Shown: one piece after another, positions 6,029 to 35,367 of the stretch
Layout of the letters: each line of letters begins with the position of its first letter
How positions within the stretch are numbered: position 1 is the stretch's first letter
NCBI GenBank assembly: GCA_040390125.1
Contig: JAZJYZ010000001.1
Span: forward strand, 70,428 to 134,427
DNA: 64,000 nt
Reading direction: 5' to 3'
DNA from: Patescibacteria group bacterium
Lineage (GTDB): Bacteria; Patescibacteriota; Minisyncoccia; Phycocordibacterales; Phycocordibacteraceae
Made by a program: the position numbers and the translations under genes
The notes under the pieces: model-generated
Told to the model about the DNA's origin: nothing
Database searches by the model: none
What the model saw: the letters and a program-made list of their open reading frames with translations, nothing else

Positions 6029-6355
6029 TTAACGTATGCGACTTCCTGGATCAACAAACCTTGTTGGCGATAAAAGTGCAAACGTACTCCCCTCACCAAC
6101 AGCAAGAAGCATTCCATTGGAAACTTGTCCTCGAATTACACGTGGTTCAAGATTGGTGATGAAAGGAAACTGTCTACCTACAAGATCAGCCGGCGAAACA
6201 TATTCCGCAATACCGGAAAGAATTTGTCGCGGAGTCTCTTCCCCGAAATCAACTTCAAGTCGAAGGAGCTTGTCAGTATCAGGTACGTGTTCTGCAGAGC
6301 GGATGGTTCCAATCTGAATTTCAGCACGCTTAAAATCATCTAGTGAAAGAGACAT
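6029..6355 (-). CDS. tRNA-binding domain protein (CsaA/Trbp111-like)
   Basis: 108 aa with the signature of the MetRS-C/EMAP-like tRNA-binding fold (...GEGSTFALLSP...). Confidence 0.5.
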   Translation of the reverse strand: MSLSLDDFKRAEIQIGTIRSAEHVPDTDKLLRLEVDFGEETPRQILSGIAEYVSPADLVGRQFPFITNLEPRVIRGQVSNGMLLAVGEGSTFALLSPTRFVDPGSRIR

Positions 6356-6358
6356 AGA

Positions 6359-6745
6359 TTATTTTTTAGTTCGCTCTATGAAACTATTAAGAATTATAGC
6401 TGCTGCCTTTGCATCTACAAACTTATCGTCCGTGTCACGCCTCGCTTCAACGGAACTATAAAATTCAGGCTCATAGAAAATCTGCATCGCTGTCGCTCGC
6501 TCAAGATCCGCAACAAATTGCCGAGTATGTTTCATAACCGAGTTATCATTTCCGTCTTTATCCTTAGACTCCCCCACGACAATCTGTGCAACGTGTTCAG
6601 TTTTAATGAGCTCTGCCAACGTTGGTATAAGCGTGCGGTCAGTTGGAAAAATAGCTTTTGCAAAAGCAACAGAACCGGACTCGTCCGAAACTGCAACGCC
6701 AACGCGTTTTGTGCCATAGTCGATACCTAAAAGTTTGGAACCCAT
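6359..6745 (-). CDS. ruvX: Holliday-junction resolvase-like RuvX/YqgF
   Basis: 128 aa with N-terminal LGIDYGTKRVGVAVSD, the canonical YqgF motif. Confidence 0.8.
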   Translation of the reverse strand: MGSKLLGIDYGTKRVGVAVSDESGSVAFAKAIFPTDRTLIPTLAELIKTEHVAQIVVGESKDKDGNDNSVMKHTRQFVADLERATAMQIFYEPEFYSSVEARRDTDDKFVDAKAAAIILNSFIERTKK

Positions 6746-6868: not shown

Positions 6869-7153
6869 ATGTTTGGTTTTAACGTTGCGGGCTTTAATCT
6901 ATGGATTATTTTGTTGATCCTATGGACTTTGCCCTGGAAAGGCTACGCTCTTTGGCTTTCTGCAAGAAACAATCAGCCCCGCTGGTTTATCGCACTACTA
7001 CTACTCAACACTGTTGCAATTCTTGAAATAATCTATATCTTCGCTATAGGCCGTAAGGTCACAAAAAATCCAAACATTCAAGCAAACAAGGGGAAAGTAA
7101 CAGAATACAGCAAGCACGAAACAGTTCGAGTATATTCAGACTCTGAAAAATAA
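6869..7153 (+). CDS. Small membrane protein, hypothetical
   Basis: 94 aa with two hydrophobic helices. Confidence 0.35.
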   Translation: MFGFNVAGFNLWIILLILWTLPWKGYALWLSARNNQPRWFIALLLLNTVAILEIIYIFAIGRKVTKNPNIQANKGKVTEYSKHETVRVYSDSEK

Positions 7154-7210
7154 AAGTTCGACTAAGTCATGGTCTGACGTTCCATAAAAAATATCTGGTA
7201 TAGTGGTTGA

Positions 7211-7687
7211 GTGCGTGAGTACAAAAGAAAACCTAACACAAAATGTTCAACCTGTGACAGGCCAATCTACAGGCGCCCTGTTGAGCTCCAACGGGGGGCC
7301 GTATTCTGTAGCTCCATATGCTACGGAAAAGCTAACAGAAAAGAAAGGCCGTGTGTCATATGCAACAACCCTATCTTAGCAAGAGCTAACAAAAAAACGT
7401 GTAGCAGGGGTTGTGCAAATAAAAACCGAGCAGGTATCAAATACGGCACCAAGAGGCCTTATGACAAGGTAAGGAACGAAAGAACCATTAAGCTACGGGT
7501 ACTGGAAATCCGTGGAGCAAAATGTGAGCGATGCGAATATAGTAAAAAGCAAATTTTGCACGTACACCATAAGGACAGGAACCATAATAACAACGAACTT
7601 CGGAACCTAGAATTGATCTGCCCAAATTGCCACTACGAAGAACACTATTTAGAGAAAAGCTGGCTAAATGATACAGTGGGTCACTAA
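7211..7687 (+). CDS. HNH endonuclease-family zinc-finger protein
   Basis: 158 aa. The C-terminal HVHHKDRNHNNNELRNLELICPNCH is the HNH motif. There are multiple N-terminal CxxC pairs. The stop lies 1 nt before tRNA-Ser. Confidence 0.65.
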   Translation: MREYKRKPNTKCSTCDRPIYRRPVELQRGAVFCSSICYGKANRKERPCVICNNPILARANKKTCSRGCANKNRAGIKYGTKRPYDKVRNERTIKLRVLEIRGAKCERCEYSKKQILHVHHKDRNHNNNELRNLELICPNCHYEEHYLEKSWLNDTVGH

Positions 7688-7688
7688 C

Positions 7689-7775
7689 GGAGAGGTGGCA
7701 GAGTGGTCTAACGCACCGCACTTGAAATGCGGCGACCCTTAACGGGGTCCGAGAGTTCGAATCTCTCCCTCTCCG
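7689..7775 (+). tRNA. tRNA-Ser (anticodon TGA)
   Basis: Acceptor GGAGAGG/CCTCTCC, anticodon stem CCGCA/TGCGG with loop CTTGAAA, long variable arm, T-arm GAGAG-TTCGAAT-CTCTC. 87 nt. Confidence 0.85.
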
Positions 7776-7854
7776 CACGTTCGTTTTTTTTGAGCAATCG
7801 TTTACCGTTGAACTGGTAAACATAAGACTACATAATCAGACAAAAAATAACTAA

Positions 7855-8700
7855 ATGAAAATCCTTACTGCAAATATAGGGATGGGTATGCCCGGTATGC
7901 GGAGTGCTACAACAAGCCTCCGCATTCTTGTTGGCTTCCACGGATGGAGCGTTCTCCCTTTTATTATCTTCGGAGGAAGGCTCGGATGGCTCTTTCGTTA
8001 CAGTGTCTATGCGGATAGTAAACGAGAACGATGGCTCGGTAGCAAAAGTACACTTACGCCGACACTTGATCTTATAGAGAAAGAACAGCCTGATGTAGTG
8101 ATCCTCAACGAAGTGGTGTACGAAATCCATAAAGAAAGCCTGGAGACAGCACTGGAGCGACTTGGATTTCCACACATTGCGTGGGGTCGAAGTCTGCATC
8201 ACCCAGGAGCAACTATGTCGACTGTGACCGCGTCTAAGTTGCCATGTCTTTCTGATGGATTCACTCCTGAAATTCTTCAGCTTCCACAAATTTCCGGAGG
8301 TGCAGGGATAAGCGGTGTGCGTTTAGCACACCTGCCAGTAACCATTGTTGGTTTTCATTTAACGCTGGGGCTGCGCAAACTTTTCCAGAGACAGCTTGCT
8401 GATCTCGTGAAACTTGCTGAAGCTGAAAGAGCTGAAGGAAGAACAATGCTCTTGGCGGGAGATTTCAACGCACGAGCAAAAATAATAGGAAAACAAAAAG
8501 CGTTTGCAAAACTCCAAATGACATCAGTAACACGCCAGGTTACCTCTCCCTTAGGACTTCCGAAACAATTCCAACGAGATTTGGACCATATTTTTATCCC
8601 AACAAACTGGCACATTCAAGAAACAAAATATGCAGCATTCGGTTCAGATCACTCAGCAGTCATTGCAACGGTCACTCCACCGGTAGAATCAGATCAATAG
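7855..8700 (+). CDS. Endonuclease/exonuclease/phosphatase (EEP) family protein
   Basis: 281 aa with DVVILNEV, LAGDFNA and GSDHSAV motifs. Confidence 0.6.
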   Translation: MKILTANIGMGMPGMRSATTSLRILVGFHGWSVLPFIIFGGRLGWLFRYSVYADSKRERWLGSKSTLTPTLDLIEKEQPDVVILNEVVYEIHKESLETALERLGFPHIAWGRSLHHPGATMSTVTASKLPCLSDGFTPEILQLPQISGGAGISGVRLAHLPVTIVGFHLTLGLRKLFQRQLADLVKLAEAERAEGRTMLLAGDFNARAKIIGKQKAFAKLQMTSVTRQVTSPLGLPKQFQRDLDHIFIPTNWHIQETKYAAFGSDHSAVIATVTPPVESDQ

Positions 8701-8720
8701 AGAGCGGTATAATTTCATAC

Positions 8721-9665
8721 GTGCCCAAAAACACGATACCACTGAGTAGCGGAGCACTAATGCCAGCCTTAGGCTTAGGTACTTGGAAATCCCCTGCAGA
8801 TATTGTGGGTCAGGCAGTTGAATATGCTCTTACTGAAGGTGGGTACCGACACATCGACTGTGCAGCAATCTACCAGAACGAGAAAGAAATAGGACGTGCC
8901 TTTAAAAAAGTATTCGAAGGAGGCGCCGTGAAGCGTTCTGACGTTTTTATCACGAGCAAATTATGGAATTCGGCTCATAGAAAAAATGAAGTTCGAATAG
9001 CGTGTGAAAAAACATTGTACGATTTGAATTTAAAATATTTGGATCTCTACCTTGTGCATTGGGGTATTGCTACTCCATCACACTGGGCTATACCAACTAA
9101 CGGTGGGCCAGAAGCTGAGTACGATGAACATGGAGTCTTACTACTGGAAAAAATTCCAATTCGAGAAACATGGGAAGCAATGGAGGATTTGGTGCATGCG
9201 GGTCTGGTGAAAGCGATCGGCGTTGCGAACTTCACTGCACCAATGCTCATTGATATTCTCACCTATGCAACGATACCTCCTGCCATAAACCAGATAGAGC
9301 TTCATCCGTATCTTCAACAATCTCGACTTGTTGAGTTCTGCCAGCAAAAAAACATTGCGGTTACCGCATATTCCCCCCTTGGCTCTCCTGGGAATTACAC
9401 GAAATCAAATGTGCTAGAAGATGCATTGATCACAGAAATTGCAGAGACTCACAAAAAGTCCCCTGCCCAAGTATTAATCCGCTTCGCACTCGAGAGAAAC
9501 ACCATTGTTATTCCAAAAAGCACCTCCCCCGAAAGAATTAAAGAAAATATAGATGTGTTTGATTTTGAACTATCAGACCCTGAAATGGCAAAGCTCCGAG
9601 CACTAGAGCAGGGGCTTCGTTTTGTTGATCCATATGAATGGGGTAAAGTGCCGTATTTCGACTGA
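8721..9665 (+). CDS. Aldo/keto reductase
   Basis: 314 aa with PALGLGTWKS, YRHIDCAAIYQNE and IPKS motifs. Confidence 0.8.
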   Translation: MPKNTIPLSSGALMPALGLGTWKSPADIVGQAVEYALTEGGYRHIDCAAIYQNEKEIGRAFKKVFEGGAVKRSDVFITSKLWNSAHRKNEVRIACEKTLYDLNLKYLDLYLVHWGIATPSHWAIPTNGGPEAEYDEHGVLLLEKIPIRETWEAMEDLVHAGLVKAIGVANFTAPMLIDILTYATIPPAINQIELHPYLQQSRLVEFCQQKNIAVTAYSPLGSPGNYTKSNVLEDALITEIAETHKKSPAQVLIRFALERNTIVIPKSTSPERIKENIDVFDFELSDPEMAKLRALEQGLRFVDPYEWGKVPYFD

Positions 9666-9680
9666 ATCAATACAACGTAC

Positions 9681-10811
9681 ATGAAGCTGATTACGGTCAA
9701 CATTGAAGGCGACAAACACTTGGAACGTGTACTAGCTTTTTTAGAACGTGAACATGCGGACGTGATATGCATGCAAGAGCTTTTTGTAACAGATGCCGTG
9801 TTTTTTTCAGAGCGACTGAATATGCAGTATGCATACTCCCCTATGCTTTACGCAAAACGTAAAAAGTCTGATCTCGAAACAGGCGAAGAATTAGGTATAG
9901 GAATTTTTTCACACACTCCTTTAACCGATGTGAAATCACAAAACTATTGGTCACCGAGCGACACACTAGAACAATTTGACAGTACCGATGTGCACACCAA
10001 GCGTAAAACTGAAAGACATGTCCTTTTGTCAGGGAACATAGACATAGCCGGGGAACTATTTACAATTGCAACAACACATTTCACCTGGACGCCAAACGGA
10101 CTGCCTGACCACTATCAAGAAACTGACGCTGAAGCACTGCTTTCTCTTCTCTCTAGAATGCCCGAGGTAATTGTATGTGGAGATTTCAATATTCCTCGTG
10201 GACACAATAACCTATACAAAAAAATCACTACGATCTATAAGGATGCAATACCCACTTCATACATTTCGAGCTTAGACCTTACCTTGCATCGTGCGGGGAA
10301 AGACCCGATAGAAGCGACGAATTTGGCAAAGTTCATGGTCGATTACATTTTCCTTTCAAAGAAGTATGAGGCAACAGAAGTACGCCTTGAGGGAAACATC
10401 AGCGATCACATGGCAGTGATAGGAACTATACATGTGCTACACCCGGGTGTAGCACATGTAACGAAATATGCAGGGACAGTAGCACGAGGAGAAAGCACGG
10501 GAACACGACTCGGCTTCCCTACCGCAAACATTCCCCTTCAAGATGCGAAACTAACGGGCATCTACGCTGGCACAGTCATCGTTCAGGGCACTTCCTATCA
10601 GGCGGGTATATACGCAAACCAGCATCGACACATTCTTGAAGCACATGTATTGGATTTTTCGGGAGATCTGTATGGAAAAACAATCACGATTACTCTCGAT
10701 AAAAAAATCCGTGATGACAAAGAGTTCGCCTCTTTCTCAAACGAAGCAGAGCTCTCAAAGACGATTGCGGACGACATCAGACAGGTTCGTGAATATTTCA
10801 ATAAATCCTAA
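9681..10811 (+). CDS. Fusion protein: N-terminal EEP domain plus C-terminal riboflavin-kinase domain
   Basis: Residues 1-250 carry EEP motifs (ICMQELF, VCGDFNIP, SDHMAV). Residues 255-376 carry the RibF-C/riboflavin-kinase signature (GESTGTRLGFPTANIPL...LEAHVLDFSGDLYGK). Confidence 0.6.
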   Translation: MKLITVNIEGDKHLERVLAFLEREHADVICMQELFVTDAVFFSERLNMQYAYSPMLYAKRKKSDLETGEELGIGIFSHTPLTDVKSQNYWSPSDTLEQFDSTDVHTKRKTERHVLLSGNIDIAGELFTIATTHFTWTPNGLPDHYQETDAEALLSLLSRMPEVIVCGDFNIPRGHNNLYKKITTIYKDAIPTSYISSLDLTLHRAGKDPIEATNLAKFMVDYIFLSKKYEATEVRLEGNISDHMAVIGTIHVLHPGVAHVTKYAGTVARGESTGTRLGFPTANIPLQDAKLTGIYAGTVIVQGTSYQAGIYANQHRHILEAHVLDFSGDLYGKTITITLDKKIRDDKEFASFSNEAELSKTIADDIRQVREYFNKS

Positions 10812-10831
10812 TTACACGGTATCCTGAATCA

Positions 10832-11755
10832 ATGAATTTCTTTAAAAAATACGCTCCGTTTCTTGTCCTTTTTGCGGCGATGCTTTGGGCAACAGATGCA
10901 CCTTTCCGTATCCATTTAACCGAAGGTCTTTCAAGTAATTTTATTGTTCTTGGTGAGCACTTCATCGCCATACTATTTGTATTACCTATACTCCTTCTCA
11001 ATTTCAGAGAACTAAAAAAATTAAAACTAAAAGAGTGGTTAGCGGTTCTCTTCATTGCTATTGGCGGAAGTGCCCTTGCATCCATTGCGTTTACCCAAGC
11101 ATTCCATTACCTCAACCCATCGGTTGCAATTCTCTTACAGAAACTTCAACCATTCATGGTGATTGGTTTAGCGGCAGTCGTTTTGAAAGAAACACTGGGC
11201 AAGCGTTTTTGGCTTTTCGCTCTGGTCTCAATCGTGGGTGCATACCTCATCTCATTCCCTAATCTTATTCCGCAAACGTATCCCGGTGAGACATTTAATG
11301 CGAACCTGCTTGGCGTAGGACTCGCACTCATCGCTGCATTCTTCTGGGGTGCATCGACGGTGTTTGGTAAGGTGGTGCTGAATAAAACAAACTTTAAAGT
11401 TATGACGTCGCTCCGGTTTTGCGTTGCGTTTGTGTTTCTTGTTTTCTTGAACCTATTCCAACACTCGTTCCCCGAATGGAGCACCGTTACATCAACTGAC
11501 TATCTCTTCATATTCATAATCGGCATCACCTCAGGAGTGGTCTCACTCTTCATCTACTACAAAGGGCTTGAGAACACGAGTGCATCAGTTGCGACAATGG
11601 CGGAACTCGGCTTCCCTCTTGGGGCAGTTGTCGTGAACTGGATATTCCTAGGCGCCATTCTTCTCCCGATGCAAATCTTTGGCATGGCAATTCTACTGTT
11701 GGGTGTATACGGACTTGCGAAATACAACCGGGCATCTGAAGTGGCTAGCGTTTAG
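10832..11755 (+). CDS. EamA/DMT-family transporter
   Basis: 307 aa with about 10 TM helices and an EamA-like duplicated architecture. Confidence 0.6.
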   Translation: MNFFKKYAPFLVLFAAMLWATDAPFRIHLTEGLSSNFIVLGEHFIAILFVLPILLLNFRELKKLKLKEWLAVLFIAIGGSALASIAFTQAFHYLNPSVAILLQKLQPFMVIGLAAVVLKETLGKRFWLFALVSIVGAYLISFPNLIPQTYPGETFNANLLGVGLALIAAFFWGASTVFGKVVLNKTNFKVMTSLRFCVAFVFLVFLNLFQHSFPEWSTVTSTDYLFIFIIGITSGVVSLFIYYKGLENTSASVATMAELGFPLGAVVVNWIFLGAILLPMQIFGMAILLLGVYGLAKYNRASEVASV

Positions 11756-11799
11756 GGTTTAGTGCTCAGGGAACTCCCCTAAACGCTAAACGCTGTTCA

Positions 11800-12501
11800 C
11801 TAACCCCTGCGCTCTATCTCCTCAATCGATTTGTTGCGGTGCATGATTTCATCATTTCTCACTGACCTGAAGAATTCGTATTGATTCGGGGCCTCTCTAC
11901 CGTACCACTCAAGATATTTACTCACCATCGGTTTCTTTTTTAATTCTTCGCCGTTCGCTTCAAGAAAGCGAGAATACTGCTCAAATGCATGAGACTCAAA
12001 AAGATAGTTGAGCTCCAGTGCATTTCGTGGATTAAAAACATACAACCAGTAGGCCGCCCAAAAATAGAAGAAAGCAAAAAGCATCGGTATGACAGTGTGC
12101 ACAAGCACGTTGTCTTTCTGTTCAGCCTTGGCAAGCGCTGAAATTACTACAACATGCATTGTTTCGTTGTCTGTTGCTAAGCGAGCAAATTGCGAGAGTT
12201 TTGCAAGTCGCATAGCTTTACTCTCATTTTGATAAAACATTGTGAGAAAAGTAAATGCAGCAGAGTCCCATGAATGGTATGGGACGCGCGCAATCACTTC
12301 CACTGCTCTGAATTTCAAATATGAAGGTGCCTTGCCGTATACGGTATTCCCGCACCACACGAGCATGTGACCAAGAATACGTGGAAGTAAGTGGGGCTTG
12401 TAGTCATCGTATGGCTTTTTATATTCTTCGAGGGTGGTGGGATCATTGAGTGAAGCATTTAAAGCCTCAAGTTCTTCGTGCGTCTGCTCCATGCCGTACA
12501 T
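11800..12501 (-). CDS. Alternative oxidase (di-iron carboxylate quinol oxidase, AOX/PTOX family)
   Basis: 233 aa with four di-iron-binding-like motifs: AVEVIARVP, NETMHVVV, LFESHAFEQY and RNDEIMHRN. Confidence 0.6.
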   Translation of the reverse strand: MYGMEQTHEELEALNASLNDPTTLEEYKKPYDDYKPHLLPRILGHMLVWCGNTVYGKAPSYLKFRAVEVIARVPYHSWDSAAFTFLTMFYQNESKAMRLAKLSQFARLATDNETMHVVVISALAKAEQKDNVLVHTVIPMLFAFFYFWAAYWLYVFNPRNALELNYLFESHAFEQYSRFLEANGEELKKKPMVSKYLEWYGREAPNQYEFFRSVRNDEIMHRNKSIEEIERRG

Positions 12502-12568
12502 TGTAAACCAGTTCTTTTAAAGGAACGAGTGCCCTGTATGGTCTCAAAATGAGGTTATACTAAGCGGA

Positions 12569-13030
12569 ATGGAAAAACAGATACTCGCAAGCTGGCAAGC
12601 TCGGGAATATGAGTTTCGCCCTAAAGAACAGCAATGGTATTGGATAGTAGGTATTGTTGCGGTGGGTGCAGCTGTTGCAGCATTCATTCTCACTGATTAT
12701 CTTTTTTCTTTCATCGCAATCATAAGTGGGTTTGCCATCATGCTCGTTGGTTCAAAAAAACCTCAACGCCACAAGTATAGTCTTACGGAGCGAGGATTCT
12801 ACATTGGCACACACCTCATCCCCTATTCCCAAATGACAAAATTCGCCATCCGTGAAGACGAACCTAGGAAACTGAGTATTGAAACAAAGGGACTCACGGG
12901 AACCCTCAGTGCCCCGCTTGGAGACACGGACCATCGTGCAATTCGCACTGAACTCAAAAATAGGAACATCGAGGAAGTAGAGTCACTTGATTCATTTATA
13001 GATCAAGTAGTGAGGGGGATGGGACTTTGA
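12569..13030 (+). CDS. Membrane protein, hypothetical
   Basis: 153 aa with two N-terminal TM helices. Confidence 0.4.
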   Translation: MEKQILASWQAREYEFRPKEQQWYWIVGIVAVGAAVAAFILTDYLFSFIAIISGFAIMLVGSKKPQRHKYSLTERGFYIGTHLIPYSQMTKFAIREDEPRKLSIETKGLTGTLSAPLGDTDHRAIRTELKNRNIEEVESLDSFIDQVVRGMGL

Positions 13031-13234
13031 ACTAGGCGATGCCCCATCGGATCCGCAGGGATCATTTAGTGTTTAGGGGATAGGGTCTAGAGAAAACACA
13101 TAGGACAGTGTTTTTTCGGGGTTTTGTGCTAAATTTGAACGACTGTTCGTAGGCAACTGCTCCCGTAAGCGAAGCTTTCGGGGGCTCGCTCGAAGAGTAT
13201 GAAAATGCTAGCATTTTCATGTTCCTTCTCTCTC

Positions 13235-13306
13235 GCTCCCGTCGTTCAATGGATAGGACATATCCTTGCGGAGGATACGATGTGGGTTCGATTCCTGCCG
13301 GGAGCA
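13235..13306 (+). tRNA. tRNA-Arg (anticodon GCG as read)
   Basis: GCTCCCG-TC-GTTC..GGAC-A-TATCC-TTGCGGA-GGATA-CGAT-GTGGG-TTCGATT-CCTGC-CGGGAGC-A. The anticodon loop TTGCGGA gives GCG, which is unusual because bacteria typically use ACG. No CCA is encoded. Confidence 0.75.
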
Positions 13307-35052: not shown

Positions 35053-35367
35053 ATGTTGTCGAAAAAAGAGCGCGTTTCAAGGCTCACATTCCAAAAGCGA
35101 CCTGTACGTACAGGTCGCTTTATATATGGCTCTATAAAAGGGTTTGAGGGAGATCCTGCTGGGGCCGTTGTCGTTTCAAAAAAAGTCTGCCGTACGGCTC
35201 CAGCACGAAATAAGCTTAGACGAAGGATTTACAATATTCTCCGTCCTCTCATCCGCACCAAGGCACTTCAAGGTAACGTTATCGTGTATCCAAATGCACT
35301 GGCTATGAAGGCTCCGTTTCAAGAGCTGAAGAAAGAACTGGAGAAGCGTTTAGGGGTTAGCGTTTAG
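35053..35367 (+). CDS. rnpA: RNase P protein component
   Basis: 104 aa. LSKKERV...RNKLRRRI... is basic and RnpA-like, and its position after rpmH fits. Confidence 0.75.
   Translation: MLSKKERVSRLTFQKRPVRTGRFIYGSIKGFEGDPAGAVVVSKKVCRTAPARNKLRRRIYNILRPLIRTKALQGNVIVYPNALAMKAPFQELKKELEKRLGVSV

Follow-up and report, generated by a model that had tools for sequence, protein, structure and literature searches.

A stretch of 64,000 nucleotides (nt) from the genome of a Patescibacteria group bacterium (assembly GCA_040390125.1, contig JAZJYZ010000001.1, positions 70,428 to 134,427; hereafter the window, numbered from its first letter) encodes a protein of 376 amino acids (aa) in which an endonuclease/exonuclease/phosphatase (EEP) domain is followed by a riboflavin kinase (RFK) domain. 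This EEP::RFK protein is probably the product of a real, recent, and lineage-specific in-frame fusion of two operon neighbors across a palindromic junction, in which the RFK would work with the EamA permease encoded downstream and the EEP domain would keep the function of its family.

The reading frame is continuous from end to end, without an internal stop codon or frameshift. Amino acids 5 to 243 matched Exo_endo_phos (PF03372) with 51.6 bits (Pfam cut-off, 24.5), and amino acids 261 to 373 matched Flavokinase (PF01687) with 83.7 bits (cut-off, 19.6; profile positions 5 to 124 of 124). A sequence-only reading had proposed a full EEP domain followed by a riboflavin kinase in a single open reading frame (ORF), and both matches bear this out; the C-terminal region is indeed a riboflavin kinase under HMM search. 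In a sequence search of the PDB, the kinase half matched the RFK modules of T. maritima RibF (1mrz), of 3op1, and of human RFK (1nb0). With the NCBIfam models for RibF, the C-terminal kinase third alone aligned, to about aa 260 to 375 of the fused ORF, and the equivalog level for RibF/FAD synthetase was not reached (TIGR00083, 75.6 versus 184.35; NF0041xx models, 46 to 70 versus 241 to 461). An N-terminal FMN adenylyltransferase (FMNAT) domain was not found in the ORF with these models; thus, the protein does lack the FMNAT half of canonical RibF, as had also been read from the sequence. It resembles bifunctional RibF in that a homologous RFK module (TIGR00083 positions 172 to 290; 1mrz, 3op1) stands C-terminal to another catalytic domain but differs in having no N-terminal FMNAT, which in related Patescibacteria appears as an FMNAT-like separate small gene.

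The characteristic residues of both domains are in place. The PTAN motif of RFKs is present as P280-T281-A282-N283 (nt 10518 to 10529) within G278-F-P-T-A-N283, and the LExH motif is present as L319-E320-A-H322, with Glu320 encoded at nt 10638 to 10640; from RFK structures, we take E320 to be the catalytic base. P, T, and N of PTAN, E320, and H322 were invariant across 39 relatives. In the N-terminal half, the EEP catalytic residues N7, E33, D168, N170, D221, D242, and H243 were invariant across 30 relatives, and the family motif THFTWTP (aa 132 to 138) was invariant in the relatives as well. A HAD match was not found in this half with Pfam or NCBIfam, and the domain is an EEP; the equivalog level for ExoIII/Xth apurinic/apyrimidinic endonucleases was not reached (TIGR00633, 36.3 versus 99.05; TIGR00195, 30.1 versus 182.55). 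AlphaFold2 (AF2) modeled the EEP half with a predicted local distance difference test (pLDDT) value of 95.7 and a predicted template modeling (pTM) score of 0.92, and the full-length fusion with a pLDDT value of 94.7 and a pTM score of 0.78, as two well-folded modules with a dip in confidence at the linker (the block of aa 251 to 260, which includes the linker, had a pLDDT value of about 77, among the lowest in the model). Foldseek against the PDB matched the EEP half to many EEP structures with a probability of 1.0, which confirmed the fold. The nearest structures were only 12 to 19% identical (the uncharacterized 3g6s and 3teb; structural-genomics EEPs; TDP2; nSMase; Nocturnin; and ExoIII, with 15% identity to 1ako in the structural alignment), and these generic EEP matches gave no clue to the substrate. 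Since the catalytic residues are intact in both halves and the modeled domains fold independently, the product is most likely a two-headed protein.

In the protein alignment, aa 1 to 253 correspond to an entire stand-alone EEP and aa ~261 to 376 to an entire stand-alone RFK, and the intervening HPGVAHV occupies the site at which the relatives have a stop codon and an initiator Met. The EEP part is an ordinary member of a family, common in Patescibacteria, of stand-alone EEPs of about 250 aa with the THFTWTP motif (proteins P0002 to P0120), has all family-invariant residues, and is 53 to 62% identical to its closest members, but those all stop at about 250 to 258 aa. Its C terminus in frame 0, SDHMAVIGTI, fits the family pattern SDHMAV[IV][AG]xI, and P0038 shares VIGTI.

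The same locus was found in relatives (L001, L002, L083, and L084/L085) with separate genes for EEP (253 to 254 aa), RFK (118 to 120 aa), and EamA, in that order. Their EEPs are the ones 53 to 62% identical to that of the window, and synteny 3' of EamA is common to all (genes for an alternative oxidase [AOX]-like protein, DUF5673, S20, RuvA, and a Mur ligase). The junction between EEP and RFK ranges from a 4-nt overlap (-4; L002 and L083) through +2 nt (L001) and +116 nt (L084) to a spacer of about 250 nt (L003), and in the four relatives with exact coordinates, the RFK frame is +2 relative to the EEP frame; in the window, it is 0. A further relative, L168, has an RFK 69% identical to that of the window in the same synteny (DUF5652-RFK-EamA-AOX...), with the EEP absent. 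Therefore, the EEP occupies a variable slot at this locus.

The site of the EEP stop codon and the RFK start codon in the relatives is covered in the window by a perfect palindrome at 10429 to 10460 which, read in frame, codes for the last EEP residues and the entire HPGVAHV linker. In frame +1, the palindrome reads GTG TAG CAC ATG, that is, an out-of-frame TAG (10450) and ATG (10456), which resembles the junction CTA TAA CC ATG of L001. As RNA, it would form a 14-bp hairpin (-26.8 kcal/mol; z = -3.6). No palindrome or hairpin was found at the EEP-RFK junctions of the relatives, including those with a spacer. The features of the ORF and of its surroundings are listed in Table 1.

Table 1. Features of the fused ORF, its junction, and the adjacent genes in the window
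Feature	Coordinates	Strand	Basis or remark
Fused ORF, 376 aa	9681..10811	+	NCBI MES2134704.1, annotated 'MAG: riboflavin kinase [Patescibacteria group bacterium]'; contig of 748,944 bp
EEP domain, aa 1-253	9681..10439	+	Pfam, alignment, AF2, Foldseek
Linker HPGVAHV, aa 254-260	10440..10460	+	No counterpart in relatives
Riboflavin kinase (Flavokinase) domain, aa 261-376, and stop codon	10461..10811	+	Pfam, NCBIfam, PDB matches
32-bp perfect spacer-less palindrome, TACATGTGCTACACCC and GGGTGTAGCACATGTA, CCCGGG center	10429..10460		16+16 arms
tRNA, upstream of the same-strand run	7689-7775		Rfam
EEP1, a distant second paralogue of the EEP; opens the same-strand run that follows the tRNA	7855..8700	+	Pfam
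Aldo/keto reductase (DkgA-like), ends 15 nt upstream of the fused ORF	8721..9665	+	Pfam, NCBIfam
EamA/DMT (drug/metabolite transporter) permease, 20 nt 3' of the fused ORF; candidate riboflavin importer	10832..11755	+	PF00892 twice, 136.9 bits

If the genome truly had two genes, an error of sequencing or assembly at the palindrome could have produced the fused ORF. The architecture is a singleton, as is reported below, and a spurious base at 10431 to 10434 would mask a 256-aa EEP (stop codon TAG 10450) and an overlapping RFK (start codon GTG 10434). We compared the window with the independent Logan assembly of run SRR26324623. Two contigs matched with 0 mismatches over 7705 to 10458 and 10431 to 13074, ending and starting exactly at the junction, so the joining of left and right depends on the assembler of the metagenome-assembled genome (MAG) alone. 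The overlap of the contigs is, however, the perfect palindrome (32 bp once the flanking TA on each side is added), and a break is expected there because a 32-bp palindrome breaks a de Bruijn graph of k=31. Polymorphism as the cause of the break was rejected, since the contigs part precisely at the palindrome. The two assemblers agree on every base across it, and since the second assembly is identical base for base, a sequencing error is unlikely. In a scan of 736 single-base changes, 56 restored two genes. No single substitution created a stop codon between codons 253 and 261, and only deletions at 10431 to 10434 restored two genes and kept the conserved EEP C terminus. A simple single-base error was rejected as an explanation, with just these four non-homopolymer positions compatible with that C terminus. 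The join also fits the EEP-RFK-EamA synteny of five relatives. An artefact is thus highly improbable, and the earlier view that this is one gene, and not two split by a frameshift, holds: the frame is open and the second assembly has no mismatch.

A single ORF could still give effectively two proteins if the RFK were also, or mainly, made separately, by internal initiation at GTG 10434 or by cleavage or pausing at the hairpin, in which case the proteome would hardly be affected by the fusion. The RFK domain is preceded by in-frame GTG 10434 (with AGGA 9 nt upstream), GTG 10416, and ATG 10410; the strong hairpin lies exactly at the junction; and translational coupling is the ancestral state. 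GTG 10434, however, lies within the 5' arm of the hairpin and would be occluded, and with no stop codon in between, ribosomes on the EEP must run on into the RFK. We consider separate production of the RFK quite improbable.

Relatives of the fusion were sought among 5.8 billion clustered proteins and by exhaustive HMMER search over 1.84 billion representatives. With the whole protein as the query against the clustered proteins, PF03372 and PF01687 occurred together, among the matches listed, only in P0001, the query; the 119 matches that followed were stand-alone EEPs of at most 62% identity, nearly all of 240 to 270 aa. With the kinase part as the query, the best 120 matches were all stand-alone flavokinases (106 to 160 aa; at most 73% identity). 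The best 150 matches of the exhaustive search were all single-stretch, EEP-only proteins of 124 to 284 aa, and a fused relative within this EEP family would have ranked above them. The survey of its phylogenetic distribution thus places the EEP::RFK fusion in one genome only, as a singleton, and among multidomain RFK proteins (FMNAT-RFK, HAD-RFK, and EamA-RFK), EEP-RFK is a new variant.

The genes next to stand-alone RFKs of the window type give a different picture of the kinase. Such RFKs were found beside EamA (L086, L168, L079, the P0191 locus, and clade A, which comprises the window and the EEP-RFK-EamA loci), beside riboflavin synthase and lumazine synthase (L086, L088, L089, L169, and L170), and beside a small FMNAT-like nucleotidyltransferase (L086, L087, and the P0191 locus). 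The small genes (135 to 139 aa; CTP_transf_like, with a weak FAD_syn match; L086:6370-6777, L087:324-830, and 6324-6743 of the P0191 locus) look, by their profile matches, like the FMNAT half of RibF encoded separately. Moreover, L091:198-1487 and L101:3050-4327 each encode a single protein in which the EamA permease is N-terminal and the flavokinase C-terminal. EamA and Flavokinase were both carried by 119 of the 120 best matches to L101, down to 47% identity (proteins P0388 to P0507). These proteins are annotated just 'EamA family transporter', and no description of an EamA::RFK fusion was found in the literature searched. When metagenomes were scanned with the RFK profile, most of what came back was ordinary RibF (66 of 83 classified loci), and little was gained on close relatives.

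The EamA protein of the window has two PF00892 matches and is linked to flavin genes by adjacency and by fusion to RFK; with the permease half of the EamA::RFK fusion, it shares 33% identity over its full length (E = 1e-38). A precedent for a riboflavin importer of the EamA family is RibN (as cited in PMC10557607), and the families of riboflavin transporters have been reviewed (PMC4418817). Since RFK and EamA are adjacent, their fusion is widespread, and RibN provides a precedent, the supported unit is import by EamA and phosphorylation by RFK, with the riboflavin specificity of EamA and the enzymatic activities as predictions. By gene context, the true and conserved partner of the window kinase is the downstream EamA permease. 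The EEP::RFK protein is like the EamA::Flavokinase fusions in that neighboring operon genes were joined, with the same type of RFK, and the EamA of the locus is homologous to theirs. In contrast, those fusions are widespread and conserved in Patescibacteria, whereas EEP::RFK is a singleton and RFK and EamA are separate in the window, 20 nt apart.

The context of the EEP family was surveyed in 80 GTDB species loci (L003 to L082) of 302 found, with flanks of up to 5 kb on each side. An RFK was encoded directly downstream of the EEP in one locus (L003) and 1 to 2 kb upstream in two (L035 and L079), and EamA was immediately upstream, at the contig edge, in another (L078); in 75 of the 80 loci, no RFK, RibE, RibH, or EamA of the window subfamily was found in the flanks. 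The EEP-RFK neighborhood is not general across the family. Most genes immediately beside the EEP were housekeeping genes. CTP synthase (pyrG), immediately upstream in about 16 of 78 loci, was the commonest neighbor and the sole recurrent context; downstream neighbors were mixed (GlmS-like in 4 to 5 loci, IMPDH in 4, and Ddl in 2). The adjacency of pyrG hints at a nucleotide-related role of the family.

In L035 (632-6850) and L079 (37-5735), the EEP belongs to a tight operon, G6PD-6PGD-Cyclase(PF04199)-RFK-(EamA)-RibE-RibH-EEP-(Ddl), in which it follows RibH by 5 to 8 nt. Only the last two steps of riboflavin synthesis are encoded there, together with a formamidase-like 'Cyclase' protein and pentose-phosphate enzymes; the flanks showed no RibA, RibB, or RibD. 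In a neighbor-joining tree of the EEPs, these two loci (clade B) are separate from clade A, with 37 to 41% identity and a different gene order. No residues were found that set clades A and B apart from the rest of the family (control clades gave 0 to 6).

Could the fusion, then, be a genuine bifunctional flavin enzyme, in which the EEP serves as a phosphatase for ribityl-5'-phosphates (as an FMN hydrolase and/or a phosphatase of 5-amino-6-ribitylamino-2,4(1H,3H)-pyrimidinedione 5'-phosphate [ARPP]) or an FAD/FMN phosphodiesterase? It would be an EEP-fold analogue of plant AtFMN/FHy (AtFHy/RFK), an FMN hydrolase fused to RFK (Sandoval & Roje 2005, as described in PMC2972280 and PMC9678776). The order of domains is the same, and each of the two is a cytosolic protein that combines an N-terminal phosphoesterase and a C-terminal RFK in a single chain. 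However, the plant phosphatase has the HAD fold and the window protein the EEP fold, with an RFK of the C-terminal type of bacterial RibF; the plant fusion has been conserved in land plants as well as in green algae, and both of its activities have been shown, whereas the window fusion occurs in one genome and its activities are predicted. The gene contexts offer something to this explanation as well. The EEP closes the riboflavin operon after RibH in L035 and L079 and follows EamA in L078; clades A and B, in both of which it lies near flavin genes, fall apart in the EEP tree and differ in gene order. The ARPP phosphatase step of riboflavin synthesis is filled by unrelated folds (HAD, IMPase, and histidine phosphatase), and many of these enzymes also hydrolyze FMN (PMC12051542). 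Among the structural neighbors, Nocturnin (NADPH) is an EEP enzyme that acts on a dinucleotide cofactor. But the fusion is a singleton, the same locus exists without the EEP in L168, the EEP was present in 0 of 7 other stand-alone RFK contexts, flavin genes are absent near the EEP in the 75 GTDB loci mentioned, with CTP synthase as the commonest neighbor, and clades A and B have no distinguishing residue in common. Apart from one ambiguous ORF resembling RibD_C/DHFR, riboflavin synthesis genes, RibH and RibE included, and FMNAT-like genes were not found in the 64-kb window with local HMMs and Pfam. Furthermore, a cytoplasmic FMN phosphatase tethered to an RFK would be a futile cycle unless regulated. 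We regard a bifunctional flavin enzyme as unlikely. A flavin substrate is conceivable for the EEP because it follows RibH in the clade B operon, and a flavin role (FMN hydrolase or ribityl-phosphate phosphatase) is weakly supported by these gene contexts. The broader proposal, that the THFTWTP family is an unrecognized ribityl-5'-phosphate phosphatase (for ARPP, ahead of lumazine synthase, and/or FMN) and the window protein a bifunctional FMN hydrolase/RFK, convergent with plant HAD-RFK and forming a flavin homeostasis module with EamA, seems somewhat more doubtful still.

The sequence-only reading had suggested a flavin salvage or remodeling enzyme. The link to flavin salvage stands, with a monofunctional RFK 20 nt upstream of an EamA gene; at least 119 other proteins combine RFK with a permease of that family. 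A dedicated EEP-flavokinase remodeling enzyme finds no support as a conserved entity: the fusion occurs in one genome, the relatives have separate genes, L168 lacks the EEP, and the EEP stands mostly beside housekeeping genes elsewhere.

For the fusion of operon neighbors, which we favor, the following course may be envisaged. In the ancestral state, a gene for an EEP phosphoesterase of about 253 aa would have lain next to a gene for a monofunctional RFK of about 118 aa. A palindrome-forming template-switch mutation, in one or a few steps, may then have replaced the stop/start junction with the 32-bp perfect palindrome, so that the stop and start codons were lost together and HPGVAHV came to be read through. 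The RFK head would convert riboflavin imported by EamA, with ATP, to FMN and thereby trap the vitamin, and the EEP head would, like the rest of its family, hydrolyze phosphoesters in a Mg-dependent reaction. Most likely, the fusion arose recently as a side effect of the tight packing of the operon and would be near neutral. Template-switch mutation at quasipalindromes (PMC7202029, PMC7954356) and palindromes in coding sequence (PMC6649704) have been described; as in these cases, the window has a spacer-less perfect inverted repeat at a multi-base change, with both arms in frame, but an ancestral quasipalindrome was not seen in the relatives, and the template-switch origin of the junction is an inference. 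Several points weigh against this course of events. The two assemblies may have been built from the same reads. With a single genome, selection on the fusion is not measurable, and a template-switch origin is not reconstructable from the present relatives. The EEP stands beside flavin genes in two separate clades, somewhat above chance, so the pairing could be functional, and the overlapping EEP stop and RFK start codons in L002 and L083 imply translational coupling.

The palindrome at the junction is one of four in the window that are perfect and lack a spacer (36, 32, 28, and 22 bp); in composition-matched simulations, the longest palindrome was usually 14 to 18 bp and never exceeded 22 bp. 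Long perfect palindromes are common in Patescibacteria loci (1.7 to 2.3 per 64 kb), and many are bidirectional-terminator-like. The 36-bp palindrome (GQFVQPPEVAQIG; 2021 to 2056) is coding and corresponds to aa 46 to 58 of a F420_ligase-like ORF (1884 to 2603). At this site, the orthologue in L001 carries a near-perfect palindrome of 32 bp, in which differences in one arm are compensated in the other; therefore, the arms have been kept matched in the lineage, by selection on the hairpin or by template-switch correction. The 28-bp palindrome (35094 to 35121) is at, or just upstream of, the 5' end of the RNase P protein gene, and the 22-bp palindrome (13199 to 13220) is intergenic, before a tRNA gene (13235 to 13306); the latter has a 30-bp counterpart in L002 (5668 to 5697) with the common core AATGCTAGCATT. 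These two may be terminators or operators.

The neighbors named by the sequence-only reading, a second EEP, an aldo/keto reductase, and an EamA transporter, were confirmed. Together with the fused ORF, they form a run of four genes on the plus strand with gaps of 20, 15, and 20 nt. No match to the FMN riboswitch RF00050 was found in the 64 kb; Rfam gave only tRNAs near the operon, and scans of 7500 to 12700 for sigma-70 promoters and terminators were at chance level and uninformative. The slot between DUF5652 and RFK (6869 to 9665 in the window) was variable among the window, L001, L002, L084, and L168. It contains an HNH endonuclease gene (7211 to 7687), the tRNA gene, EEP1, and the aldo/keto reductase gene in the window; EEP1 and a GIY-YIG gene in L001; a PhoD/purple-acid-phosphatase-like gene in L084; VKOR and DUF3750 in L002; and nothing in L168. 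None of the relatives examined has the DkgA-like aldo/keto reductase gene in this slot. The homing-endonuclease-type genes suggest mobile insertions.

Convergent with EamA, an AOX-like di-iron protein (PF01786, 34.6 bits) is encoded on the minus strand (11800 to 12501); its gene is beside EamA in all syntenic relatives with that flank visible (L002, L084, L085, and L168), and such a protein is unexpected for a presumed fermentative Patescibacteria genome. A cluster at 628 to 2603 encodes a Vut_1 vitamin-uptake-type transporter (628 to 1287), an ambiguous RibD_C/DHFR-like reductase with near-equal scores to both families (1199 to 1792), and the F420_ligase-like protein, and this trio is partly kept in L084 and L168.

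Taken alone, the fusion is a curiosity, found in one genome, without conservation and without a sign of altered function. It is nevertheless a clean natural example of coupled neighbors becoming a multidomain protein, with the scar, a palindrome with an out-of-frame TAG...ATG, still visible. The uncharacterized but abundant EEP family is nominated as a candidate, of low probability, for a phosphatase of the flavin pathway. In these reduced-genome Patescibacteria, the flavin module is made up of a monofunctional RFK and EamA, very often fused, and sometimes of RibE/RibH and a separate FMNAT-like gene, and the EamA::RFK architecture predicts a new riboflavin uptake-and-phosphorylation trap that is hidden under the annotation 'EamA family transporter'.

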